Shown: positions 10,213 to 51,217 of the stretch, piece after piece | How the letters are laid out: every line of letters begins with the position of its first letter | How positions within the stretch are numbered: position 1 is the stretch's first letter | Source: an uncultured Clostridium sp. | GTDB lineage: Bacteria > Bacillota > Clostridia > TANB77 > CAG-508 | Length of the DNA stretch: 64,000 nucleotides | Assembly: GCA_900553985.1 (NCBI GenBank) | Contig: USFW01000003.1 | Coordinates: 31,492 to 95,491, forward strand | Direction: 5' to 3' | Translations under genes and position numbers: made by a program | The notes under the pieces: model-generated | The model's input: only the letters and a program-made list of their open reading frames with translations | Told to the model about the DNA's origin: nothing | The model's database searches: none

Positions 10213-10344
10213 AAAATCTCCTTTCTTTCATTATATTAATACAAGTATATAAATAATAAAAAAAATATGCAATAATTTTGAAAAAAATATATGATAATAT
10301 TTTAAGATTAGTTCACAATAAAATAATATTTAGAAGTTATTTAA

Positions 10345-10620
10345 TTACTGGATAATGGTTTTAAAAATTAACCGCTGAAAATAGTTGATAATTATAATTT
10401 TTTTAGATTTTGACTACTTATTTCATTCAGAAAGAATTGGTAAGGCTTCCTAATGAGCCTCTCTCACTCAGACCCTTTCATACTTCAAGTACCGTGAGCA
10501 TTCCTCATTAGAAAGCCTAACCAATTCTAATCTTCATTCCAGTCGAACATCAAAATCTAAAAAAATTATAATTATTAACTATTTCCAGCTTCTCTACAAT
10601 AAAAACTATTATCATGTAAC
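10345..10620 (+). repeat. foldback element, copy 1 (family of four in this window)
   Basis: Whole-length imperfect hairpin centred near 10481. Outer arms are 10374-10414 and 10549-10589. The GC-enriched core is shared almost exactly with 24358-24635 and 50905-51175. Confidence 0.9.
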
Positions 10621-10730
10621 GTTATTTATATTAATTTTAAAAAATATATTGACAAAGATTTAAAAAAGTTATAATATTAAATCAATATATGAACATATAA
10701 TCATACAATTATATAAAAGGAGAAAAAATA

Positions 10731-14072: not shown

Positions 14073-14126
14073 TATCCTAGATATAAGAATATTTCTGTGG
14101 GATAGTCTTTTTATATCTAGGATAGT
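14073..14126 (+). terminator. terminator region with alternative hairpins
   Basis: CTATCCTAGATAT (14075-14087) can pair with GGGATAG (14100-14106, followed by TCTTTTT). It can also pair with the perfect complement ATATCTAGGATAG (14114-14126). Confidence 0.5.
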
Positions 14127-14222
14127 CTATTTCAAAATTATTAATTTTTTATAAATTTTACTTGATAAAACATAAATTTATGATATTATTATGTAATAAA
14201 AAATAAACAAAAGGAGAAGTTT

Positions 14223-22978: not shown

Positions 22979-24271
22979 ATGAAAATATTGATGTTAACAT
23001 GGGAATATCCACCAAGAGTAGTAGGAGGAATAGCAAGAGTTGTATATGATTTGTCAAGAACTTTATTAAAAGATGGTCATGATGTAACAGTTGTTACATA
23101 TAAAGAAGGAGATGCACCATATTTTGAAGATGATAAAGGAGTAAAAGTATACAGAGTAGATAATTATATGATAAATCCTAATAACTTTATCGATTGGATT
23201 ATGCAATTAAACTTTAATTTAGTTGCAAAAGCAAATGAGATAATAGCAAAAGAAGGAAATTTTGATGTAATTCATGCACATGATTGGTTAGTAGCATATG
23301 CAGCAAAAACATTAAAAAATTCATATAATATTCCAATAGTTGCAACAATACATGCAACAGAAGCAGGAAGAAATAGTGGAATACATGACGAAACACAAAG
23401 ATATATAAATGACACAGAATGGATGCTTACATATGAAGCTTCAGAAGTTATAGTTAATAGTAATTATATGAAAAATGAATTACAAAGACTATTTGGTTTA
23501 CCATATGAAAAGATAAATGTAGTTCCAAATGGAGTTAATTTAAACTTATTTAATGGTGTAGAAAGAGATTATAACTTTAGAAGAAGATTTGCTATGGATA
23601 ATGAGAAAATTATATTATTTATGGGAAGATTAGTATATGAAAAAGGAATTCAACATTTAATTTCAGCTATGCCTAAAATTTTAAATGGATACCATGATTC
23701 TAAACTTGTTATTTGTGGAAAAGGTGGAATGATAGACGAGCTAAAAGCACAAGTAAATGCTATGGGAATATCAAATAAAGTATATTTTGCAGGATATATG
23801 AATGGAAAAGATGTGCAAAAAATGTATAAAGCAGCTGATGTTGCAGTATTTCCAAGTACATATGAGCCATTTGGAATAGTTGCATTAGAAGCAATGCTAT
23901 CAGAAAATCCAATAGTTGTATCGGATATTGGAGGCTTAAATGAAATTGTGCAACATAGAGAAAATGGAATGAAAAGTTACGCAGGAAATCCAAATTCAAT
24001 AGCAGATTCAATATTAGAATTGTTATATGACCATAAATTATGTGCAGACATAACAAAAAAAGCTAAAAATAAAGTTAGAAATGAATATAACTGGAATAAG
24101 ATAGCACAAGATACTCACTTCACATACCAAAAAGCAATTTGCCAATCAATGGCAGAAAAACAAAAAAGAGAGCTTGAACAAGAAAGAGCTAAGAAAACTA
24201 AAAAAGTAGTTAAGGGAGATAACGAAATTACTAATTTACTTAACTTTAGAAAACGTCAAGCGTATGCATAG
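22979..24271 (+). CDS. family 4 glycosyltransferase (GT-B, group 1)
   Basis: MKILMLTWEYPPRVVGGIARVV N-terminus and a C-terminal E..G....EAM motif region (YEPFGIVALEAM). The ATG at 22979 is 7 nt after AAGGAAG. Confidence 0.8.
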   Translation: MKILMLTWEYPPRVVGGIARVVYDLSRTLLKDGHDVTVVTYKEGDAPYFEDDKGVKVYRVDNYMINPNNFIDWIMQLNFNLVAKANEIIAKEGNFDVIHAHDWLVAYAAKTLKNSYNIPIVATIHATEAGRNSGIHDETQRYINDTEWMLTYEASEVIVNSNYMKNELQRLFGLPYEKINVVPNGVNLNLFNGVERDYNFRRRFAMDNEKIILFMGRLVYEKGIQHLISAMPKILNGYHDSKLVICGKGGMIDELKAQVNAMGISNKVYFAGYMNGKDVQKMYKAADVAVFPSTYEPFGIVALEAMLSENPIVVSDIGGLNEIVQHRENGMKSYAGNPNSIADSILELLYDHKLCADITKKAKNKVRNEYNWNKIAQDTHFTYQKAICQSMAEKQKRELEQERAKKTKKVVKGDNEITNLLNFRKRQAYA

Positions 24272-24297
24272 GAAATATAGAATAATATATAAAATGA

Positions 24298-24340
24298 AGA
24301 CTGTCATAAATATAGGAATATATTTATAGGCAGTCTTTAA
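24298..24340 (+). terminator. intrinsic terminator
   Basis: AAGACTG..ATAAATA / TATTTAT..CAGTCTT stem followed by TTT. Confidence 0.6.
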
Positions 24341-24357
24341 TGATTTTAAAAAAATAA

Positions 24358-24635
24358 GTTACTGGGTAATGTTTTTTAAATTAGTCGCTGTGAATAGGTG
24401 ATACTTATAACTTTTTTTAATTTTTGACTACTTATTCCATTCAGAAAGAATTGGTAAGGCTTTCTAATGAGCCTCTCTCACTCAGACCCTTTCATACTTC
24501 AAGTACCGTGAGCATTCCTCATTAGAAAGCCTAACCAATTCTAATCTTCATTCCAGGCGAACGTCAAAAATTAAAAAAAGTTATAAGTATCACCCATTCA
24601 CAGCTTTTCTATAATAAAAATTGTTATACTATAAT
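24358..24635 (+). repeat. foldback element, copy 2
   Basis: Same core as copy 1. The outer arms differ from copy 1 at about 8 positions, but the two arms still match each other at 41 of 42 positions. Confidence 0.9.
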
Positions 24636-24751
24636 GAAAAAAATTGAAAAATTTTCTTAAATTCTACAAATTTAGCATAAAAATGGTGTATAATATAAAA
24701 GTAATGTACTTAAAAATATAATCAAAAAACAAAATAGAAAGAGGAATTATT

Positions 24752-25654
24752 ATGGCAAACTTTAAGTCAGGATTTGTAACATTAATAGGAAGAACAAATG
24801 TAGGAAAATCAACATTAATAAATTTATTAGTAGGAGAAAAAGTTGCAGCAATAGCAAATAAAGTTCAAACAACAAGAACAGCAATAAGAGGTATAGTAAA
24901 TAGAGAAAATGCACAAATAATATTTACAGATACACCGGGAATACATAAACCAAAGCACAAGCTAAATGAAACAATGGTTGAGACTTCATTTTCAACTATA
25001 CCTGATGCAGATATAGTGTTATTTTTAATAGAAGCAACAAGTGAAGATATTGGAAAAGGAGATAGAATAATACTAGAAAAAATAAAAGAATCTAAAAGAA
25101 AAACTATATTGATAATAAATAAAATAGATTTAGTAAAAAGAGAAACTCTTTTAAAACTAATTGAAATATATAGTAAAGAATATAGTTTTGAAGCAGTAAT
25201 ACCAATTTCAGCAACAAATTCTAAATATAGAGAAATAATATTGGATGAAATTGAAAAAAATTTACAAGAAGGACCAGCATATTATGATACAGAAGAATAT
25301 ACAGACCAAACTTTAAGACAATTAGCAGAAGAAACAATAAGAGAAAAAGCACTAAAATTACTACAAGATGAAGTACCGCATGGAATTTATGTAGAAATAG
25401 AAAAAATGAAACTAAGAAAAAATAAGCAAAAAGAAGAAATATATGATATAGAAGCAACGATTTACTGTTTAAGAGAATCTCATAAAGGAATAATAATAGG
25501 AAAAAATGGAGAAATGCTAAAAAGAATAGGAAGAGCAGCAAGGATAGATATGGAAGAAAATTTTGGCACAAAAATAAATTTAAAAACTTGGGTAAAAGTA
25601 AAAGAAGATTGGCTTGATAATCAATCAATAGTTAATAAGTTCAAATTACAATAA
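24752..25654 (+). CDS. era: GTPase Era
   Basis: G1 GRTNVGKST, G3 DTPG, G4 NKID and a C-terminal KH domain. Confidence 0.95.
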   Translation: MANFKSGFVTLIGRTNVGKSTLINLLVGEKVAAIANKVQTTRTAIRGIVNRENAQIIFTDTPGIHKPKHKLNETMVETSFSTIPDADIVLFLIEATSEDIGKGDRIILEKIKESKRKTILIINKIDLVKRETLLKLIEIYSKEYSFEAVIPISATNSKYREIILDEIEKNLQEGPAYYDTEEYTDQTLRQLAEETIREKALKLLQDEVPHGIYVEIEKMKLRKNKQKEEIYDIEATIYCLRESHKGIIIGKNGEMLKRIGRAARIDMEENFGTKINLKTWVKVKEDWLDNQSIVNKFKLQ

Positions 25655-36097: not shown

Positions 36098-36112
36098 AGG
36101 AGATGAAGTTTA

Positions 36113-36826
36113 ATGGAGAATGCATCAAAAGCATTAATAATAGCAGGTAGTGTGTTATTAGCACTAATAGTAATTGGTGCATTCATGTTAATGTTATCGA
36201 ATCTTACTGATTATAAGGATAAAAATGATACAAGAGTACAACAACAACAAATAGTCGAATTTAATAATCAATTTTCAACATATGATAGAATAGGTCTAAG
36301 AGGAACTGATATGCTATCTTTAATGAATAGAATAATAGACTATAATGTAAGAAAAACAGCAGAAGAAGTAGGTTTTCAAAAGATGAAAATGACTATAAAG
36401 GGAATTGATAAAAATATACTACAAGCAGTGAGATATGAGCCATCAGGACCAAACTTATTAATAAAGAAAAATGCTTATACGCAAGAAGATTTATCAGAAA
36501 TAGTAACAAAACCTCAAAATTTAGAAAATAAATATCAGAAAAAATATATTACACAATTAGTAAGTAACGTTTCATCTTTTATGGATATTTATAGCAGTAG
36601 TTTATCAATAAATCAAAAGATACAAGAAATAAATGATAAAAAATGGTTGCCCAAAAGTATAACAACATATGGGAGCTTAGATAGTGTGAAAAATGACATT
36701 TTAATATATTATGAGTATTCACAATTTAAGAGAACATACTTTGATTCTACAGGAGAGACTAAATATGATAAAAATACAGGAAGAATTACGGAAATGAATT
36801 TTAATTGTGTAGGAATAGGAGAGTAA
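36113..36826 (+). CDS. pilin-like protein, MENASKAL class (237 aa)
   Basis: N-terminus MENASKALIIAGSVLLALIVIGAFMLMLS. One of four paralogous N-termini in the locus. Confidence 0.6.
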   Translation: MENASKALIIAGSVLLALIVIGAFMLMLSNLTDYKDKNDTRVQQQQIVEFNNQFSTYDRIGLRGTDMLSLMNRIIDYNVRKTAEEVGFQKMKMTIKGIDKNILQAVRYEPSGPNLLIKKNAYTQEDLSEIVTKPQNLENKYQKKYITQLVSNVSSFMDIYSSSLSINQKIQEINDKKWLPKSITTYGSLDSVKNDILIYYEYSQFKRTYFDSTGETKYDKNTGRITEMNFNCVGIGE

Positions 36827-36827
36827 T

Positions 36828-37316
36828 ATGGAGAATGCATCAAAAGCATTATTAATGGCAGCAGGCGTACTAATTGGGGTATTGATATTATCTTTAGCAG
36901 TATTTTTATTTGTGAATTTTGGAGGAACATCAGCTAGGATACATGATACAGTACAAAAAAACCAATTAGCTAAATTTAATACACAATTCACTAATTATGA
37001 AACAAAAGAAAGTGTAACAATTTATGATATTGTTTCAGTAGCTAATTTAGCAACTGAAAATAATAGAGAAAATCAATTACAAAAGAAAACAGCATCAACT
37101 AATGGAATAGATAATTATATAACTGTAAAATTAAAAGGAAGATGTATAGAAGGTGGAGAAAACACAGATATAAAGCAACTAGAGGATGATTATAATAAAA
37201 AAATAATAGAAGATATCAATAGACAAAATAATGGAGAATTAAAAAAATATAAAGCAAAGACATATGTAAGTACAGAAACGGGCAGAGTTTATTTAATAGA
37301 ATTTAGTGAAATTTAA
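36828..37316 (+). CDS. pilin-like protein, MENASKAL class (162 aa)
   Basis: N-terminus MENASKALLMAAGVLIGVLILSLAVFLFV. Confidence 0.6.
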   Translation: MENASKALLMAAGVLIGVLILSLAVFLFVNFGGTSARIHDTVQKNQLAKFNTQFTNYETKESVTIYDIVSVANLATENNRENQLQKKTASTNGIDNYITVKLKGRCIEGGENTDIKQLEDDYNKKIIEDINRQNNGELKKYKAKTYVSTETGRVYLIEFSEI

Positions 37317-37357
37317 TAAAAAAATTTTATATATGGAATATATTAGACAGGTGAAAA

Positions 37358-37789
37358 ATGAAGAAATTTATAATTTTTTTAGTAGTTATTTTAATGATAA
37401 TTGCAACAATATCATATCTTTATTTGAATTATAAAGCTAATTACAACATAGCCCAAAAAGAAAATTTTCAATTTGAAAGTTACTATAATCAAGAAATATT
37501 TGGACCAGATGTTGCAACTGTAATAAATAAAGCAATTGATAAAAATTCAAACAACAATATAAAGAAAGATAATAAAGGCAATTACATAGAAGATAATACT
37601 AATTCGATAAAAATAGATATAAAATTTATAGATGATGATAAAATACACAACATGGAAGAAATCTTTAACAAAGGTATAGGCACATTTATGCAATATTATA
37701 GCCAGATAAAATTCAAATGCACAAAAATTGATTATCATAAATCTAGTAAAAAAGTTAAATATATGTTATTTGAACAAATAACAAAATAA
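37358..37789 (+). CDS. small N-terminally anchored protein of the pilus locus
   Basis: MKKFIIFLVVILMIIATISYLYL anchor followed by a polar domain. Confidence 0.5.
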   Translation: MKKFIIFLVVILMIIATISYLYLNYKANYNIAQKENFQFESYYNQEIFGPDVATVINKAIDKNSNNNIKKDNKGNYIEDNTNSIKIDIKFIDDDKIHNMEEIFNKGIGTFMQYYSQIKFKCTKIDYHKSSKKVKYMLFEQITK

Positions 37790-37859
37790 TAAAGTTATTT
37801 AAGTTACTAAAGAAATTTAGTATATATAGCAAAAGTAAAATTTAAAGGAGGAATTTTTT

Positions 37860-38282
37860 ATGGAAAATGCATCAAAAGCATTAATTATTGCAGGAGCAAT
37901 ACTATTAGCAATTTTAATTATAACATTAGGAATTGTAATTTACAATCAAGCACAAGGAGTAGTAAATAATAGTTCGATGAATCAAGTTGAAGTAACACAA
38001 TTTAATACACAATTTACACAATATGAAGGTAAACAAAGAGGTTCAGTTGTAAAATCTCTATTCCAAACAGTATTAGCAAATAATGTATCACAAGATAGTG
38101 AGGATAGACAAGTTAAAATTGAATGTACAGTAACAGGAAATTTAGAAAAAAATGCTACATCATTACCTGCAAATATGTCAAAAATAGCAACAGGTGCATC
38201 ATATGAAATAAGTATTAAATATGGTACAGGTAAAGGTAATGCTGGATTGGTTGATGTAATTACAGTTGCACCAGCAAATTAA
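37860..38282 (+). CDS. pilin-like protein, MENASKAL class (140 aa); major subunit candidate
   Basis: N-terminus MENASKALIIAGAILLAILIITLGIVIY. Strongest SD in the locus (AAAGGAGGA), preceded by a 70-nt spacer, and the smallest globular domain. Confidence 0.6.
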   Translation: MENASKALIIAGAILLAILIITLGIVIYNQAQGVVNNSSMNQVEVTQFNTQFTQYEGKQRGSVVKSLFQTVLANNVSQDSEDRQVKIECTVTGNLEKNATSLPANMSKIATGASYEISIKYGTGKGNAGLVDVITVAPAN

Positions 38283-38308
38283 AAAGTACAAAGAAAGGAT
38301 GATATATT

Positions 38309-38950
38309 ATGGAAAATGCAGCAGACGCATTAAAAATGGCAGCAGCCGTATTAGCTTTTGTTCTAGCATTAGGAATTAGTATGTCATCTTTTTCCGAAGT
38401 TAGAGAAGTTTCTGAAATAATTTTAAATTATAAAGACAAAGAATATAATTACAATTATATTCCAGAAAATGGAGATACTACTAGAAAAGTAAGTGTAGAG
38501 ACAATAGTTCAAGCAATTTATAGAGCGTACAATGAAAATTATAAAATTTATTTTTATGAAAATGGTAATGAATCAGACCCATTAACTATATTTCAAAAAG
38601 GAACAAATCAAAAAGAAGAAATTAATTATATTGATTTAAGAGGACAAGCACTAGTAAGTGTTGAAAAGAGAAATCAGTTTATAGGTTGCATTTTATATGG
38701 AAGTTCATATAGAGATCCTAATGGAAAATCATTTAATGATATAAAAAATGAATTTAAAGAACTAGGAATTATATTGCAAGATCAAGGATTATATGATAAA
38801 ATATTAAGTAGTGGAGGAGCTGAAGAAAAATTTGGAGTGTATTATGAAGATGATGAGATAGTAGATAACTCAAATCCAGATGATTCTGAATCAAACGTAC
38901 CACAAGCAAACAGAGTAAAGAAAAGGGTTATTACATATATTTTGCAATAA
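38309..38950 (+). CDS. pilin-like protein, MENAADAL variant (213 aa)
   Basis: N-terminus MENAADALKMAAAVLAFVLALGISM. Confidence 0.55.
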   Translation: MENAADALKMAAAVLAFVLALGISMSSFSEVREVSEIILNYKDKEYNYNYIPENGDTTRKVSVETIVQAIYRAYNENYKIYFYENGNESDPLTIFQKGTNQKEEINYIDLRGQALVSVEKRNQFIGCILYGSSYRDPNGKSFNDIKNEFKELGIILQDQGLYDKILSSGGAEEKFGVYYEDDEIVDNSNPDDSESNVPQANRVKKRVITYILQ

Positions 38951-41224: not shown

Positions 41225-41360
41225 TAATTGTGCTTGCTTATACTATATTTCAAATATAATTTATTATTAAACTGGTAATTATAATATAAAAAATGATAAG
41301 GTATAATATAAAATAAAAAGTTAATAATATTAAAGAGAACTTAAAAAAAAGGAGAAAAAA

Positions 41361-42591
41361 ATGCAAAAGAAAACAAAATCTTTAATATTATTGACTTTTT
41401 TAATTATAATATACATGTATACATTAGTGATAACATCAATACCAGGTAAAATGGTAGTATTTGAGGGAGAAGAAATAAACATAAAAACATTATTAGGACT
41501 GAATTTAATGGAAAAAAACGATAGCATGGAAGTATCATCAAATGTAAATAATCAGAAAATAAATGAAGTAGGAGTAAAAAAGCTTACATTAAATTTGTTT
41601 GAAAAATTACCATTAAAATCCATAAATGTATCAGTATTGCCAAGAACTAAAGTAATACCGGTTGGAAACATTGCAGGAGTAAAACTATATACAAGTGGAG
41701 TTTTGGTGGTAGGAATGTCTGAAATAGAAGGGAAAGATAATAAAATATATAAGCCATATGAAAATACAGGAATAAAAGAAGGAGATACAATAACTAAAAT
41801 AAATAATAAATATATATCTTCAACTGATGATCTAATAGATAATGTAAATAAATCAAATGGAGATACAATTGAAGTAACATATATTCAAAATGAACAAACA
41901 AAAGAATGTAGTATAACCCCAGTAAAAACTGATGAAGATGAATATAAAATTGGACTTTGGGTAAGAGATAGTGCAGCAGGAGTGGGAACAGTAACATTTT
42001 ATGAACCTGATACAAAAACATTTGGAGCACTAGGACATGGGATAGCAGATATAGATACAGGTGAGTTATTAAATATAGCATCAGGAGAGTTTGTAACGAC
42101 TAGAGTTTTAAATATAACAAAAGGAGAAAAAGGAAATCCAGGGAAAATTCAGGGAACAATTGAAAATCAACAAACAATAGGAGAAATATCAAAAAATACA
42201 GGTTTTGGGATATATGGCAAAGTAGATAATATATCAAGTTTAGATATAGATGCATCCAAAGAAATGGAAGTAGCATTAAGAGATGAAATAAAATTAGGAA
42301 AGGCAAAGATACTATGTAACTTAGATAATAAAAATGTACAAGAGTATGAAATAGAAATAAAGAAAATATATAAGGAAAATAATTATAATAACAAAAGCAT
42401 GGAAATAGAAATAACAGATGAAAGGCTAATAAACAAAACAGGAGGAATAATACAAGGAATGAGCCGGATCACCAATAATTCAAAATGGAAAATTTGTAGG
42501 TGCAGTAACACATGTATTAGTTAATAATCCAAAAGAAGGATATGCTGTGTTTGGAGATTTAATGCTAAAACAAACAAAAGAAATAAAATGA
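41361..42591 (+). pseudogene. spoIVB: SpoIVB peptidase (S55) interrupted by a 1-nt frameshift at the catalytic-Ser motif
   Basis: PDZ plus S55 domains. The frame breaks after GGIIQGMS (extra C at 42464/42465 in AGCCGGA). The +1 frame continues [34 protein letters not shown] to the TGA at 42589-42591. This matches the conserved GMSGSPI...GAVTHV region. Confidence 0.85.
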
Positions 42592-42706
42592 TTTTGGGGT
42601 CGGAGACAAAAATCATGTAAGAATTTGAAAAAGATAATAATAATAAATTTTTAAATAAAAAATGGGGTATCAGAGATGCTGATTTTTGTCTCCGACCCCA
42701 AAATCA
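42589..42706. repeat. 27-bp perfect inverted repeat between convergent spoIVB and murC
   Basis: TGATTTTGGGGTCGGAGACAAAAATCA occupies 42589-42615. Its exact reverse complement occupies 42680-42706. Loop of 64 nt. The arms abut both stop codons. Confidence 0.9.
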
Positions 42707-44089
42707 TTATTTAATTAACAGAGTTCCAATATCAGTCACAGTACCAGCTCCTAAAGTCATAACAATATCATTTTCTTTAACATTATCTTTAATATACTTT
42801 ACACATTCGTCAAAATCAGGAATATATAAAGCTTTTTTACCAAGAGAATTAATTTTATCAACTAAATCTTTAGAAGATATACCATAAGTATTAGTTTCTC
42901 TTGCTGCATAGATATCTAAAACAATAATATTATCAAAATTTAGTAAAGCTTTTGCAAAATCATTTAATAAATTTTTTGTTCTGCTATAAGTATGAGGTTG
43001 GAAAATAACCCAAGACTTATTATATTTTTTATTCATTAAAGATTTAGCTGTTGCAATAATTTCAGTAGGATGATGACCATAATCATCATATACACTTGCT
43101 ATTCCATTTACTTTTCCTTTAAATTCAAATCTTCTATGAGCACCAGTGAATTTTAATAATCCTTTTTTAATAGATTGATTATCAATACCATATGCATTGC
43201 AAAGAGCAATACAAGCCAAAGCATTTAAAACATTGTGCATTCCAGGAACCGATAACTTAATTCTTTCAAAAAATTCATCATTATGATATACATCAAATTC
43301 AGCAAAACCATCATTGTCAAAAACAATATTTACAGCAAAGAAATTTGTATTTTTATTAGTAATACCATAAGTAACAACTTTTGAAGAGGTATATTGACGT
43401 AAATCTAAACAATTATTATCATCACCATTTAAAATTAGTAGACCATCATCAGGTAGGAGTTTTACATATTTTACAAAAGCATTTTTTATGTTTTCAAAAG
43501 TTTTGAAATAATCTAAATGGTCATTATCAATATTTAAAATAATTTCAGCTTTAGGGAGGAATTTTAGGAAACTTTCAACATATTCACAAGCTTCAATTAT
43601 AAAATACTCACTATTTCCTACTCTATAATTACCATCAAGTTGTTTTAAATAAGCACCAACTTGAATACTAGGGTCTTTCATAGCTTCAACAAAGCAAAGA
43701 GAAATCATAGAAGTAGTAGTTGTTTTTCCATGAGTACCAGAAACACAAATAGTATCTTTATAACATTTTGTTAGTTCTCCTAAAAAATCAGCTCTTTCAA
43801 TAGTTGGAATATTATTTTCCTTAGCAATTACCATTTCAGGATCATCTTGCCTAATTGCAGCAGAATAAACAACTACATCTGAATTTTTAACATCTTCACT
43901 ATTATGTCCAATAGTTACTTTAATTCCTTTTTTAGTTAAAGTTTCAACAGTTTCAGAATTATAACAATCAGAACCAGTAATGTTAAAGCCCCAATTAAGT
44001 AAAATTTCAGCAATTCCACTCATACTAACCCCACCGATTCCAATCATATGTATATTTTTATATTTTTTTATATTATCTATATTAGGCAT
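42707..44089 (-). CDS. murC: UDP-N-acetylmuramate--L-alanine ligase
   Basis: IHMIGIGGVSMSGIAEIL Rossmann N-terminus and GTHGKTTTTSM P-loop. Mur ligase middle and C-terminal domains. Confidence 0.95.
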   Translation of the reverse strand: MPNIDNIKKYKNIHMIGIGGVSMSGIAEILLNWGFNITGSDCYNSETVETLTKKGIKVTIGHNSEDVKNSDVVVYSAAIRQDDPEMVIAKENNIPTIERADFLGELTKCYKDTICVSGTHGKTTTTSMISLCFVEAMKDPSIQVGAYLKQLDGNYRVGNSEYFIIEACEYVESFLKFLPKAEIILNIDNDHLDYFKTFENIKNAFVKYVKLLPDDGLLILNGDDNNCLDLRQYTSSKVVTYGITNKNTNFFAVNIVFDNDGFAEFDVYHNDEFFERIKLSVPGMHNVLNALACIALCNAYGIDNQSIKKGLLKFTGAHRRFEFKGKVNGIASVYDDYGHHPTEIIATAKSLMNKKYNKSWVIFQPHTYSRTKNLLNDFAKALLNFDNIIVLDIYAARETNTYGISSKDLVDKINSLGKKALYIPDFDECVKYIKDNVKENDIVMTLGAGTVTDIGTLLIK

Positions 44090-48263: not shown

Positions 48264-48285
48264 GTGTGGTGCTTTTGAGGGGAAC

Positions 48286-48525
48286 GTTAAAATATAGCCG
48301 TTAGAAACTAGTAGTATAAATAATTTTTTTATATTAACGGCTTCTTTCATAATTTAAGAAATTCTATTGCAAAATTTTTGGTGCCCTTTCTGTGTTGGTC
48401 TCTTTTTGGAAAAGCGACCACACGAACATTACCCCAAAATTTTGCAAAGATTTTCTAAAATTATTCCAGTCACACATTAATATAAAAAAATTATTTACAC
48501 TACTACTTTCTAACTACTCTACAGT
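48286..48525 (+). repeat. foldback element, divergent fourth member
   Basis: Nested inverted repeats 48300-48338 / 48476-48514, 48351-48381 / 48433-48461 and 48391-48399 / 48415-48423, centred near 48407. Flanks and internal loops are homologous to copies 1-3, but the core differs. Confidence 0.85.
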
Positions 48526-48578
48526 GTTGAAAAAGTGCATTTTTTATGATTTAATATTGGAAGGATGGATGATGTGAT

Positions 48579-49592
48579 ATGAAGAAGAGAATTTTGACAG
48601 GTGATAGACCAACGGGAAGATTGCATATTGGACATTATTTTGGGTCTTTGAAGAAGAGGGTTGAGATGCAAAATAGTGGTGAGTATGATATGTATATTTT
48701 GATTGCTGATGTTCAAGCTTTGACTGATAATTTTAATAATCCAGAGAAGGTTAGAAATAATGTGAGACAACTTGCTATGGATTATTTGGCTTGTGGTATT
48801 GACCCTAGTAAAACTACTATATATATACAGTCTATGATACCTGAGACTGCTGAGCTTACTGTTTATTATTCTAATTTGGTTTCAATTGCAAGATTGGAGA
48901 GAAATCCAACTGTTAAGACTGAAATTGCTCAGAAAAGAGAGGTTTTCGGCGAGAGTGTTACTTATGGATTTTTAGGATATCCAGTTAGTCAAGCAGCTGA
49001 TATAACAACTTTTGAAGGTGAGTTAGTTCCAGCAGGAGAAGATCAAGAGCCTTTAATAGAACAAGCAAGAGAGATTGTTAGAAAATTTAATAGTATTTAT
49101 GGAGATGTTTTAGTTGAACCTAAAATTGTATTGTCAGAAGGTAAAAGAATAAAAGGCCTTGATGGTAATGAAAAGATGGGTAAATCTTTAGGAAATGCTA
49201 TTTATTTATCTGATACTGAAGAAGAAATTACAAAAAAAGTTATGAGTGCTGTAACAGACCCTAATAGAATAAAAAAAGATGATTTAGGAAATCCTGATAT
49301 ATGTATGGTTGCATATTATCATAATCTATTTACAGATTCAGAAGATGTGAAAAAAATATGTGAAGAATGTAGAGCTGGAAAAAGAGGTTGTGTTGCTTGC
49401 AAAAAACAATTGGCGAAAAATATAATTGAGTATTTAAGACCGATAAGAGAAAAAAGAAAATATTATGAAGAGAATATAGAACTTGTAGATGAGATCCTTA
49501 AAGAGGGAACTGAAAAAGCAAGAAAGACAGCGAAGGAAACAATGAAGAAAGTAAAGAGTGCTATGAAATTAGATTATTTTGATGAAATATAA
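48579..49592 (+). CDS. trpS: tryptophanyl-tRNA synthetase
   Basis: HIGH motif (GRLHIGHYFG), KMSKS variant KMGKS, and length 337 aa. Confidence 0.95.
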   Translation: MKKRILTGDRPTGRLHIGHYFGSLKKRVEMQNSGEYDMYILIADVQALTDNFNNPEKVRNNVRQLAMDYLACGIDPSKTTIYIQSMIPETAELTVYYSNLVSIARLERNPTVKTEIAQKREVFGESVTYGFLGYPVSQAADITTFEGELVPAGEDQEPLIEQAREIVRKFNSIYGDVLVEPKIVLSEGKRIKGLDGNEKMGKSLGNAIYLSDTEEEITKKVMSAVTDPNRIKKDDLGNPDICMVAYYHNLFTDSEDVKKICEECRAGKRGCVACKKQLAKNIIEYLRPIREKRKYYEENIELVDEILKEGTEKARKTAKETMKKVKSAMKLDYFDEI

Positions 49593-50887: not shown

Positions 50888-50904
50888 CATATAAATTTTT
50901 GTTG

Positions 50905-51175
50905 TAATAGATATAGCTTTTACAAATTAACCGCTGAAAATAGTTGATAATTATAATTTTTTGGGCTTTTGACTACTTATTTCATTCAGAAAGAATTGGT
51001 AAGGCTTCCTCATGAGCCTCTCTCACTCAGACCCCTTCATACTTCAGGTACCATGAGCATTCCTCATTCGAAAGCCTAACCAATTCTAATCTTCATTCCA
51101 TGCGAACGTCAAAATCCAAAAAATTATAATTATCAACTATTTTCAGCTACTTTATAATAAAAGATTTTTAGTAAT
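50905..51175 (+). repeat. foldback element, copy 3
   Basis: Same core as copies 1 and 2, with five substitutions. Outer arms 50933-50973 / 51108-51147. Begins 18 nt after the obg stop codon. Confidence 0.9.
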
Positions 51176-51188
51176 TTTACAATATGAG

Positions 51189-51217
51189 TTGACTAAAATA
51201 GAATTTAGTGGTATAAA
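51189..51217 (+). promoter_or_regulatory. tRNA-Glu promoter
   Basis: TTGACT (51189-51194), 17 nt, TGgTATAAA (-10 at 51212-51217). Confidence 0.55.

Follow-up and report, generated by a model that had tools for sequence, protein, structure and literature searches.

A foldback element of about 277 bp, of which four copies lie in the window (the whole stretch of DNA analyzed here, 64,000 nucleotides), very likely represents a family of MITEs, that is, non-autonomous DNA transposons. It is shorter than about 400 bp and has no transposase gene, it has terminal inverted repeats and target-site duplications, and its dispersed copies differ in presence and absence. MITEs classically have terminal inverted repeats and target duplications, carry no transposase gene and fold into long stem-loops (PMC3184786). 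In addition, at many independent insertion sites the end of the element lies at a constant distance from a landmark, the −35 box of a sigma-70-type promoter. Whether transposition actively targets promoters seems to us an evenly balanced question; the full proposal of a MITE family with an 8-bp staggered cut and targeting of promoter edges is one that we favor somewhat. Its most specific form, a family of DNA transposons that homes with a precision of about 1 bp to the upstream edge of sigma-70-type promoters, is put forward tentatively.

Anatomy and copies of the element

The ends of the element were defined from an alignment of 27 copies, which are non-coding and range from 271 to 288 bp in length. 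From the outside inwards, the element consists of imperfect 13-bp terminal inverted repeats, asymmetric subterminal loops, a 40-bp AT-rich stem and a highly conserved core, as listed in Table 1. All four copies in the window fold as one long imperfect hairpin. The arms are complementary over 40 nt (95%) in copy 1, 42 nt (98%) in copy 2, 37 nt (95%) in copy 3 and 45 nt (89%) in copy 4. These results bear out an earlier note on this DNA, which had described inverted-repeat arms of about 40 nt in each copy, pairing of the inner segments, and a single long hairpin with its apex closed by CTCAC/GTGAG. The RNA fold of copy 1 has an energy of −93.4 kcal/mol, compared to −34.6 ± 3.9 kcal/mol in dinucleotide shuffles (z = −15.2); the corresponding z values are −15.3 for copy 2 and −9.9 for the divergent copy.

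Table 1. Features of the element in the window, with the flanking duplications and promoter of copy 1
Feature	Position	Strand	Remarks
Copy 1, complete element	10344..10620	+	277 bp from terminal repeat to terminal repeat; covariance model match, 309 bits; ends from 27-copy alignment
Left target-site duplication of copy 1, GTTATTTA	10336..10343	.	8/8 identical to 10621-10628
Left terminal inverted repeat, ATTACTGGATAAT	10344..10356	+	13 bp; family consensus GTTACTGGATAAT
Left arm, outer 40-bp AT-rich stem	10374..10413	+	Sequence varies among copies, changes compensated
Conserved core	10414..10549	+	Asymmetric internal loops ..TTTCATTCAG.. (left) and ..TTCATTCCAGTCGAAC.. (right)
Inner 25-bp stem of the copy 1 core	10433-10457 with 10504-10528	+	25-nt stem, 96% paired
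CTCAC/GTGAG stem	10463-10467 with 10494-10498	+	Closes apex of copy 1
Apical 3-bp helix in the core	within 10414..10549	+	One covarying pair, from pair counts
Right arm, outer stem	10550..10589	+	Pairs with left arm
Outward promoter-like motif, right end	10572..10600	+	TTATTA (mostly TTATCA), 17 nt, TACAAT; from sequence and alignment
Right terminal inverted repeat, ATTATCATGTAAC	10608..10620	+	Family consensus ATTATCCAGTAAC
Right target-site duplication of copy 1, GTTATTTA	10621..10628	.	Near-empty site L084 has TATATTTA here
Resident promoter, arsR-type/P-type ATPase operon	10649..10677	+	−35 box TTGACA begins 28 nt past the final base of the element
Copy 2	24358..24636	+	Arms 24387-24428 and 24563-24604; covariance model match
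Copy 4, divergent subfamily	48271..48547	+	Arms 48293-48337 and 48477-48521; covariance model match, 80 bits
Copy 3	50904..51180	+	Arms 50933-50969 and 51111-51147; covariance model match

Copies 1–3 are mutually 82–89% identical over 234 nt in a repeat search of the window and 89–91% identical over 254–270 nt by BLAST, in agreement with the near-exact recurrence described in the earlier note. That note also placed a divergent fourth member at 48286, and this assignment proved correct. A covariance model built from the close family alone finds copy 4 with E = 6e-19, on the plus strand only and with no further match in the window, and copy 4 is therefore a true homologue. Copy 4 keeps the loops; every one of its stems pairs through a different sequence, and it no longer has the terminal repeats. 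Its relatives at loci L056 and L063 keep intact terminal repeats.

All four copies fall between genes. Copy 1 has Bax1-I on its left and an arsR-type/P-type ATPase operon on its right, with the two gene starts diverging. Copy 2 is downstream of the terminator of a glycosyltransferase gene and upstream of the era promoter; copy 3, which has decayed terminal repeats and an ortholog at locus L008, is between obg and a tRNA gene; and copy 4 is directly upstream of the trpS promoter TTGAAA (48527–48532). The longest ORF overlapping copy 1 encodes 33 amino acids, consistent with the earlier description of the copies as intergenic and lacking an ORF. A 14-residue ORF in the core (MSLSHSDPFILQVP) seemed to be constrained, in that the two sites with the most variation both fall at third codon positions. 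It was rejected because both sites form a covarying base pair and because the divergent copy does not have the ORF.

Insertion footprints and distribution

The terminal inverted repeats have 0–4 mismatches in most copies. They are absent or decayed in copies common to several species (copy 3/L008, L006/L034, L012/L027 and L094), which keep the interior. The flanking 8-bp duplications match at 8/8 positions at three independent loci (copy 1/L015, L018 and L023), at 7/8 in L036 and L033, and at 6/8 in L002, L009 and L056, while a control set of 182 mismatched flank pairs gave one match at 7/8 and none at 8/8. At two loci the duplications are apparently longer than 8 bp (about 13 in L025 and about 11 in L031).

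The Bax1-I/arsR intergenic region is 518 nt long in the window, as against 151–193 nt in sister species, and the arsR-type protein at the compared sister-species loci is 90–97% identical. Locus L084 is a near-empty counterpart of the copy 1 site and not a clean pair with it, the window having 31 extra nucleotides to the left of the left duplication. In L098 the element is missing from the era locus. A search with the joined flanks of every copy against all loci gave no empty site beyond the copy 1/L084 pair. The MITE-like identity offered in the earlier note as one of several is thus supported: this non-coding, multi-copy element has terminal repeats and 8-bp duplications and is absent from the same loci in sister species, and both the empty sites and the target-site duplications by which that note proposed to check for insertion were found (L084 near-empty, L098 empty). 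The note itself had overlooked where the element ends, its flanking duplications and its fixed distance to promoters.

In roughly 600 kb of compared loci we found no transposase gene with matching ends and no parent insertion sequence (the terminal repeat was found at the elements alone), so it is from footprints only that we infer transposase-mediated mobility. Every sampled strain of the species to which the window belongs carries copies 1 and 2, which are thus fixed and give no sign of current activity.

An exact 19-mer from the core matches 4–13 contigs in each of four related MAGs, giving 32 loci overall. These copy numbers are lower bounds, and the high genomic copy number anticipated in the earlier note is borne out. 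Many matching contigs terminate inside the element. The elements thereby break metagenome assemblies. The hosts form a genus-level group of uncultured gut Clostridia of low GC content (about 25% GC), with genomes of roughly 1.6 Mb. Plasmid and phage collections gave no BLAST match to the element. One viral contig contains the core 19-mer, within an apparent coding sequence; the covariance model does not recognize this hit, and it is considered a chance match; so are occurrences of the 19-mer in an archaeon, Litoreibacter, a Nitrospirales MAG and Gordoniibacillus, which have no wider similarity. Four sequence strings from the core were absent from papers in a full-text literature search.

After insertion, copies would persist through speciation, shed their terminal repeats and swap sequence among themselves. 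When L094 is compared to copy 2, the entire interior differs whereas the flanks agree at about 97% on visual inspection, which suggests that one copy was replaced or converted by another. The elements serve as recombination substrates, and a rearrangement breakpoint is marked by one chimeric copy. The whole-interior swap in L094 weakens the idea that compensated arm changes between orthologs reflect point-wise selection, and the pattern of compensated stems is probably due in part to exchange between copies.

Position relative to promoters

Promoters are treated here as consensus matches in the sequence. On a strict promoter rule, a sigma-70-type −35 box starts 28–29 nt past the end of the element at 11 of 28 non-redundant loci, for which the chance expectation is about 0.17 loci; the count rises to 13 if L056 (divergent subfamily) and L016 are included, which have TTGAAA at 29 nt and 28 nt respectively. 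Over the 28 loci, the distance is 28 nt at six, 29 nt at five, 27 nt at two and 24–25 nt at three. The other −35 matches are isolated singles over the rest of the roughly 90 nt scanned, and there is no long-distance tail. The −10-like hexamers peak at 51–52 nt from the end of the element; the −10 hexamer of the era promoter (24689–24694) is 53 nt from the end of copy 2. The tRNA promoter beside copy 3 consists of TTGACT (51189–51194), 17 nt and TATAAA. At three loci with divergent genes (L009, L010 and L017), the left end of the element is also 28–29 nt from a leftward promoter. About half of the loci have no recognizable sigma-70 promoter at 28–29 nt; the exceptions to the spacing are old copies with decayed ends, together with L013/L035 and the right side of L017.

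Among loci, the 28-nt spacers show no relationship to one another, with a flank identity of 0.36, which by our own estimate is about that expected for unrelated AT-rich sequence of such composition. Relatives that do not have the element nevertheless keep the arsR promoter with its operator, and likewise the era promoter; judged by this conservation, these two promoters are older than their insertions. We found no fixed feature of the left flank across loci, such as a terminator at a set distance. The downstream genes seen include an arsR-type metal operon, era, a tRNA gene, trpS and a pilin-like gene, with no obvious common theme. At L010 and L011/L033, the outward motif of the element itself is the sole candidate promoter for the downstream genes.

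No copy is oriented against its neighbors among about 20 independent tandem-gene loci, and no copies were seen between convergent genes among the loci examined. Some copies lie between divergent promoters, and some lie downstream of the terminator of the upstream gene. The orientation is uniform, with the strand of the element corresponding to the lagging-strand template. GC skew is positive in the orientation of the element at every locus, so that it does not separate the polarity of transcription from that of replication.

We propose that a transposase acting in trans would make an 8-bp staggered cut and insert the element. The 8-bp target would be about 20 bp upstream of the resident −35 hexamer, at roughly −63 to −56 from the transcription start, and because of this position either end of the element would come to lie 28–29 bp from an outward-facing −35 box. 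The transposition machinery may read the promoter either through the −35 sequence itself or through promoter-bound RNA polymerase, the edge of whose upstream footprint would coincide with the target. Orientation, which is uniform with respect to the leading-strand direction of the genes, would be set separately from the choice of end, the likely cause being replication polarity or selection against antisense firing of TTATCA-17-TACAAT.

The fixed distance could in principle come from selection instead of targeting. On such an account the element would be a domesticated module, formerly mobile and now kept by the host at the DNA level as an upstream accessory of promoters, its spacing and orientation arising from functional selection. 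We think this unlikely, and equally doubt the roles that such a module might have, as a cruciform or supercoil buffer, an insulator separating transcription units, or a platform to which a regulator centered near −70 to −90 would bind. A distance sharp to 1 bp at 13 or more unrelated promoters is hard to produce by filtering random insertions, as is a duplication that sits inside the 28-nt spacer, and neither a tail at larger distances nor copies between convergent genes turned up. The absence of an obvious theme among the downstream genes seen may also speak against domestication. In favor of domestication is the conservation of the interior: paralogous copies are on average 94.6% identical over the core, compared to 82% over the arms and 59–72% at the ends, copies shared between species retain the interior as their terminal repeats decay, and the loops are kept even in the divergent subfamily. 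Conservation of the core could, however, equally well reflect the needs of transposition or homogenization between copies. The fixation of copies 1 and 2, and the downstream genes at L010 and L011/L033 with no candidate promoter but that of the element, also fit a domesticated module.

The covariation of the element bears on a further explanation, which we consider improbable: that transcripts of the plus strand, arising by read-through or at an internal promoter, function as a structured RNA in which the hairpin is an intergenic site for RNase III processing or for stabilization, or the core yields an sRNA. Complementarity of the arms persists on aligning more copies, with compensated changes across the family; 98.3% of the cells are paired, and two-sided changes occur at 21 pairs compared to 10.6 ± 1.5 in shuffles. 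The covarying pair in the apical loop is U-A in 13 copies, C-G in 12 and A-U in one. Wobble pairs show a slight bias to the plus strand (15 G-U to 8 A-C overall, and 9 to 2 in the inner stem), but the stems are nearly all Watson–Crick and G-U makes up just 0.8%, which is unusual for RNA helices; moreover, compensated differences arise by replacement of whole elements with no need for RNA-level selection. Every copy runs in the same direction as its flanking genes, yet many sit past one gene's terminator and ahead of the following promoter, or in the gap between two divergent promoters, and for this reason would not be transcribed from neighboring genes. Promoter-like motifs are present inside the element on both strands (TTGACT-16-AAGAAT on the plus strand, TTGACG-18-TAGAAT on the minus strand), but the divergent subfamily lacks them; their −35 parts are absent from copy 4 and L056, and convergent internal promoters were for the same reason rejected as the cause of loop conservation. 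No U-tract terminator follows the hairpin.

There is also no match to an Rfam family. At the gathering thresholds of Rfam 15, the window yielded just two tRNAs, neither of them at a copy. In a permissive search by E-value, copy 1 matched no model better than E = 1.6, and copy 4 matches generic long-hairpin microRNA precursor models alone, at 39.6 bits against a threshold of 249. There was thus no hit to a described Rfam family, one of the outcomes that the earlier note had named as removing the novelty. The suggestion of a structured non-coding RNA in that note agrees with the strong covariation, but nothing requires it: most copies are located where no flanking promoter would transcribe them, and the internal promoter-like motifs are unconserved in the divergent subfamily; exchange between copies can also mimic compensation. 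The third suggestion of the note, a REP/ERIC-like 3′-UTR element, finds no support in copies that lie upstream of promoters, between divergent promoters, or past the terminator of the upstream gene.

Very improbable is a single-stranded DNA element of the REP/RAYT or IS200/IS605 (PATE) kind, moved by an HUH enzyme on the lagging-strand template. The orientation matches that template and the entire element folds as single-stranded DNA (z = −11.8 against dinucleotide shuffles for copy 1), but HUH transposition of the IS200/IS605 type yields neither target duplications nor terminal inverted repeats, and the element has both; it is about ten times the length of a REP, and no tnpA or RAYT appears in the Pfam gene tables of the annotated loci. 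Least probable of all is an ordinary, immobile family of long intrinsic or bidirectional terminators, which would suit intergenic copies with a very stable hairpin but not the lack of a terminator-like site in scans of copies 1 and 2 or of a T-run after the stem on the plus strand, the short separate terminators that already precede several copies, the place of copy 1 between divergent gene starts, or the terminal repeats, duplications and empty sites, which point to insertion.

Significance and comparison with known systems

As a MITE alone, the element would be just a new family in an uncultured gut lineage. Hairpins over the whole length and compensated stems are already known for MITE-like repeats, and the significance lies in the promoter spacing. 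If the spacing results from targeting, it would show a way for mobile DNA to multiply in a compact genome of 1.6 Mb while sparing the genes. It would also point to a protein, either the transposase or an accessory factor, that recognizes the −35 box or RNA polymerase and might serve as a tool for promoter-proximal integration. Dozens of promoters would then stand beside a 277-bp palindrome with a promoter facing outward, and both transcription and supercoiling would probably be affected.

Several classes of palindromic element do not accommodate the family. REP/BIME sequences are palindromic units of 20–40 bp that frequently carry a GTAG/CGTC tag and occur in genomes encoding a RAYT, whereas the unit here is 277 bp with terminal repeats and duplications. 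Palindrome-associated elements derived from IS200/IS605 have subterminal hairpins, no terminal inverted repeats or duplication, and insert 3′ of a tetra- or pentanucleotide; the element has terminal repeats and 8-bp duplications. Integron attC sites are imperfect hairpins of 57–141 bp with R″/L″-L′/R′ boxes (RYYYAAC ... GTTRRRY), in cassette arrays near an integrase gene. The element is outside this size range, occurs as dispersed single copies, and has termini GTTAC ... GTAAC in the reverse arrangement. In passing, no integrase gene turned up near the elements.

Closer in kind are Correia/NEMIS of Neisseria and ERIC/IRU of enterobacteria, which are likewise small, non-coding and multi-copy, with terminal inverted repeats, target duplications and one long stem-loop. 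Their sequences are unrelated to that of the element, and Correia and ERIC are about 100–155 bp with a TA duplication, compared to 277 bp and an 8-bp duplication here. For Correia and ERIC we know of no report of a fixed base-pair distance to resident promoters or of uniform orientation. Some of the Correia/NEMIS and ERIC/IRU elements bear outward promoters, and many are 5′ of genes (PMC3184786). The bcr1 repeat of the Bacillus cereus group, which has related interspersed repeats, resembles the element in being a Firmicutes repeat with direct-repeat flanks, compensatory changes that keep the fold and a distribution that differs from strain to strain among relatives. It is about 155 bp long with 5-bp flanking repeats and a two-hairpin, cruciform-like fold, and is transcribed (PMC3184786). 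Compared to bcr1, the salient feature of the element is its position relative to promoters.

Tn7 inserts at attTn7 through TnsD at a fixed distance and orientation, with a 5-bp duplication. Members of the IS1202 family lie 5 bp away from dif/pdif sites, on the XerC side and in a single orientation (PMC10132070). Both resemble the element in their base-pair-precise spacing from end to landmark and their non-random orientation. They differ from it in their ends and duplication length, and they use one or a few special sites per replicon, whereas the landmark of the element would be generic sigma-70-type promoters, at dozens of sites per genome. Precise targeting by Tn7, CRISPR-associated transposons, the IS1202 family and REP-hunting insertion sequences is in each case directed to special sites. 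To our knowledge no bacterial transposable element uses ordinary promoters as landmarks, and a full-text literature search for promoter-targeting bacterial transposons found none. Parallels are found among eukaryotes: Ty3 targets the start sites of RNA polymerase III, Ty1 the region upstream of tRNA genes, and Tf1 the promoters of polymerase II. As with the element, insertion is directly upstream of transcription units and coding sequence is spared. These are LTR retroelements whose integrase is tethered to transcription factors, whereas the element is a bacterial DNA element, for which tethering is a conjecture from the spacing. With that difference in mind, the family may possibly be a prokaryotic counterpart of homing of the Ty3/Tf1 type, whose copies persist as conserved foldback modules.

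Copies of the element and their fold

The repeat sequences described in the earlier note were found at their positions in the window. Repeat searches and BLAST showed copies 1-3 to be 82-91% identical to one another, with AT-rich arms of 37-42 nt that are 95-98% complementary and an inner stem of 25 nt. Every copy forms a single long hairpin, as had been proposed, and this is much stabler than dinucleotide shuffles: z-scores for the RNA fold are -15.2 (copy 1), -15.3 (copy 2) and -11.8 (minus strand of copy 1), with -11.8 also for copy 1 as DNA, and copy 4 forms a hairpin of like form (z = -9.9). Copy 4, the suspected divergent member, was matched on the + strand only (80 bits, E = 6e-19) by a covariance model trained on the close family alone; the same model found nothing else in the window beyond the four copies. 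Rfam gave two tRNAs only in the window and no meaningful match at the copies, plasmid and phage collections searched with the element gave zero matches, and a full-text literature search for core sequence strings returned no paper. No ORF that overlaps copy 1 exceeds 33 amino acids.

Positions of the element copies and of other features discussed; L numbers are loci from related MAGs and metagenomes compared with the window
Feature	Window position	Position in compared locus
Copy 1	10344-10620	
Copy 2	24358-24636	
Copy 3	50904-51180	
Copy 4 (divergent)	48271-48547	
14-codon ORF in core of copy 1	10453-10497	
Unstable stretch upstream of arsR -35 box	10282-10343	L084:1070-1140
Chimeric element, copy 1 locus	10330-10640	L045:2600-2910
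Truncated left half-element	~14120-14150	L015:2405-2498
Re-paired element, era locus	cf. 24255-24770	L094:1040-1515
Unrelated palindrome, era locus		L095:1280-1390
Second right-end fragment		L028:100-170
ORFs sharing an N-terminus	36112-38378	
AT-rich inverted repeat	41301-41414	
Perfect inverted repeat	42587-42708	
Upstream region of trpS-like gene	48271-48581	

The ends of the element were set by where similarity starts and stops in an alignment of 27 full copies with their flanks. The element is bounded by an imperfect 13-bp terminal inverted repeat (left GTTACTGGATAAT, right ATTATCCAGTAAC), inside which lie an outer asymmetric conserved loop (left TTTAAAAATTARCC, right CTWCTCTACAATAAAA), an AT-rich stem of 40 bp, a second conserved asymmetric loop (left ..TTTCATTCAG.., right ..TTCATTCCAGTCGAAC..) and, innermost, the inner stem, the CTCAC/GTGAG stem and the apex. 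Paralogous copies agree best in the core (mean identity 94.6%), less in the arms (82%) and at the ends (59-72%), and least in the flanks (30-36%). The conserved core of copy 1, like the same place in other close copies, holds a 14-codon ORF (MSLSHSDPFILQVP) preceded by AAGG. Its two most variable sites are both third codon positions, yet they covary as a base pair; the ORF is missing from the divergent copy and is probably not coding.

In an independent MAFFT alignment, 98.3% of cells are paired, against 92.9 +/- 0.3% in shuffles, and 21 pairs are changed on both sides, against 10.6 +/- 1.5. Cells changed on both sides number 122; shuffles give 35.8, and sliding the partner column by 1-3 positions leaves no more than 11. 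Nearly all of these changes are in the outer stem. The apical "loop" itself holds one covarying pair (U-A 13, C-G 12, A-U 1), and the divergent subfamily keeps the loops and has all its stems re-paired with other sequence. Mismatches are so rare (15 G-U, 8 A-C and 24 others among ~1,900 cells) that the stems are almost purely Watson-Crick; the slight excess of G-U over A-C is a weak hint that the + strand is the folding strand.

Two further inverted repeats were seen in the window. One, between convergent genes, is a perfect 29-bp repeat (AATGATTTTGGGGTCGGAGACAAAAATCA ... TGATTTTTGTCTCCGACCCCAAAATCATT) with a 64-nt spacer. It could be a long terminator that works in both directions, or else a further palindromic repeat. 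The other is AT-rich (36 nt, 86% complementary, 42-nt spacer), with promoter-like TTGACT and TATAAT inside it.

Distribution, insertion footprints and exchange between copies

An exact 19-mer from the core occurs in 32 contigs from four uncultured Clostridia MAGs; four more matches, in unrelated organisms, are put down to chance. Of the 32 contigs, many terminate within the element, as is typical of a dispersed repeat. A degenerate pattern that also fits copy 4 gave further copies in metagenomes, including two complete members of the divergent subfamily (L056 and L063). The window has a GC content of ~25% and positive GC skew throughout, and its proteins are also encoded on contigs of up to 1.6-1.8 Mb in human-gut-type assemblies labelled Clostridia bacterium or Clostridium sp.

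Direct repeats of 8 bp flank the element, with 8/8 matches at copy 1/L015 (GTTATTTA), L018 (CAAAATAT) and L023 (AAAAAGTT), 7/8 at L036 and L033, and 6/8 at L002, L009 and L056; among 182 mismatched flank pairs, 7/8 was reached in one and 8/8 in none. At L025 and L031 the repeats seem longer (~13 bp and ~11 bp, respectively). Copies 1 and 2 are present in all sampled strains of the window's species. Sister species with an arsR-type protein of 90-97% identity keep the Bax1-I/arsR pair and lack the element, leaving 151-193 nt between the genes versus 518 nt in the window. The near-empty site L084 reads ...TATATTTA-TATTGATTTTAAAAAATATATTGACA, against GTTATTTA-element-GTTATTTA-TATTAATTTTAAAAAATATATTGACA in the window, an imperfect pair in that the window has an additional 31 nt (AGATTAGTTCACAATAAAATAATATTTAGAA) preceding its left duplication. 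Sequence immediately ahead of the arsR -35 box is unstable: compared with L086 and L083, L084 carries a 42-nt tandem duplication of it. Relatives with 90-91% identical Era lack the element at the era locus, and L098 is empty there. Terminal repeats, 8-bp duplications and absence in sister species match the defining features of MITEs listed in PMC3184786, and support the MITE-like option of the earlier note. Across the loci collected, no cognate transposase was found and the terminal repeat is confined to the elements themselves.

Copies common to several species have kept the interior and lost the terminal repeats (copy 3/L008, L006/L034, L012/L027, L094). At L094, the era locus of a sister species, the flanks are ~97% identical by eye to those of copy 2, while the interior differs throughout and every change is compensated (for example, GTGATAC/GTATCAC to GTATTCC/GGAATAC, and the apical pair U-A to A-U), a pattern suggesting that one copy was replaced or converted by another, or that a new insertion hit the same target. 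L045 is chimeric: the core, right arm and right flank match copy 1, and the left arm with its flank derives from a different copy at a different locus. A chromosome rearrangement breakpoint thus lies inside the element, so that copies serve as substrates for homologous recombination; together, L094 and L045 show exchange between copies to be frequent. Template switching within a palindrome is known as quasipalindrome correction. With inter-copy exchange, it can maintain complementarity of the arms without selection on a folded molecule, a caveat on the pairing statistics above.

Partial elements were also observed. A left half-element in a CAUWFY MAG (L015), which opens with the terminal repeat and stops where the core begins, has a terminator on one side and the promoter of the next gene on the other; the window has 32 unrelated nt at this place. 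At L028, a second right-end fragment (..ATTATTAACTATTTTCTGCTACTCTACAATAA..) directly follows a complete element, indicating tandem or nested insertion.

Distance to promoters and orientation

All copies lie upstream of a gene start. Right flanks from 28 non-redundant loci were aligned at the element's last base and ~90 nt were scanned for sigma-70-type promoters (TTGACA, 16-18 nt, TATAAT, at least 9/12 matches). The -35 hexamer starts 28 nt from the element end in 6 loci, 29 nt in 5, 27 nt in 2 and 24-25 nt in 3, with scattered singles elsewhere; the chance expectation at 28-29 nt is ~0.17 loci. L056, of the divergent subfamily and from another metagenome, has TTGAAA-17-TATAAA at 29 nt, and L016 has TTGAAA at 28 nt. 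Hexamers resembling the -10 box peak at 51-52 nt, and the era promoter, with its weak -35, has TATAAT 53 nt from copy 2. The 28-nt spacer is wholly different between loci and starts with the target duplication, and is therefore resident DNA. The promoters at copies 1 and 2 also occur in element-free relatives, as does the arsR operator, so these tested promoters predate the insertions. At L009, L010 and L017, where the element lies between divergent genes, its left end is 28-29 nt from the -35 of a leftward promoter, with the gene start ~90 nt further on; the distance rule is thus valid for both ends. No other fixed feature was found in the left flanks. In the usual promoter numbering, the 8-bp target is at about -63 to -56, which is the upstream limit of the stretch that promoter-bound RNA polymerase covers in footprints.

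Among ~20 independent tandem-gene loci, none is anti-oriented; the remaining loci are between divergent genes, where orientation relative to genes is undefinable. Since the distance rule serves either end, orientation needs a separate cause, and two explanations remain. Insertion may follow the polarity of replication, as that of Tn7 does in its TnsE pathway; read in the direction of the element, every locus has positive GC skew, so that replication and transcription polarity are inseparable in these loci. Alternatively, selection may act against the outward promoter-like TTATCA-17-TACAAT of the right end firing antisense into the upstream gene. This motif is the sole promoter candidate for the downstream genes at L010 and L011/L033, whose start codons are ~23-29 nt past the element.

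L095 and L097 (91% identical Era) have an unrelated perfect palindrome of ~105 nt (GGGGACGTGCCAAATCGTTTCAAAATGATACCAAAAGGGACAGACC ...) upstream of the conserved era promoter, at the position of copy 2 in the window; this palindrome may belong to another foldback family that prefers the same sites. The trpS-like gene, identified by its N-terminal sequence alone, has copy 4 and promoter-like TTGAAA-17-TTTAAT upstream, and no T-box leader by Rfam. T-box control is usual for Firmicutes tryptophanyl-tRNA synthetase genes, and if expected here, its absence would be unusual. At L031 an element is upstream of a gene with a prepilin-type N-terminus. In the window, four nearby ORFs share one N-terminus (MENASKAL..., repeat family D3) and seem to be clustered paralogues encoding pilin-like or secreted proteins.

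Interpretation and comparison with known elements

The best-supported reading of these sequences is a MITE family placed at a fixed distance upstream of promoters by a transposase acting in trans. The transposase would read the -35 sequence or sense promoter-bound polymerase, and after insertion the copies would be long-lived, lose their ends and swap sequence. Selection alone, with the host retaining a functional upstream module, would account for the conserved core and for copy retention; however, it leaves unexplained the 1-bp sharpness of the distance, the lack of a tail of larger distances, and the fact that no copies lie between convergent genes. A role as RNA is not required and is a less probable reading. 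Covariation agrees with the ncRNA option of the earlier note, but many copies have a terminator before them and a promoter after them, or are flanked by divergent promoters, which argues against it. An HUH-type single-strand element, a terminator and an integron attC site were rejected on their defining features.

Correia, ERIC and bcr1 are described as small foldback MITEs with promoters and compensated stems (PMC3184786). The element resembles these, and is therefore a new family of a known kind. Our literature searches turned up no bacterial element described as keeping a constant distance to ordinary promoters, and a true promoter-homing transposon is a substantial but unproven possibility. 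The nearest known parallels for such precise placement are Tn7 and the IS1202 family, the latter lying 5 bp from the XerC side of dif sites (PMC10132070). The landmarks of these systems are special sites, whereas those of the element described here would be ordinary promoters.
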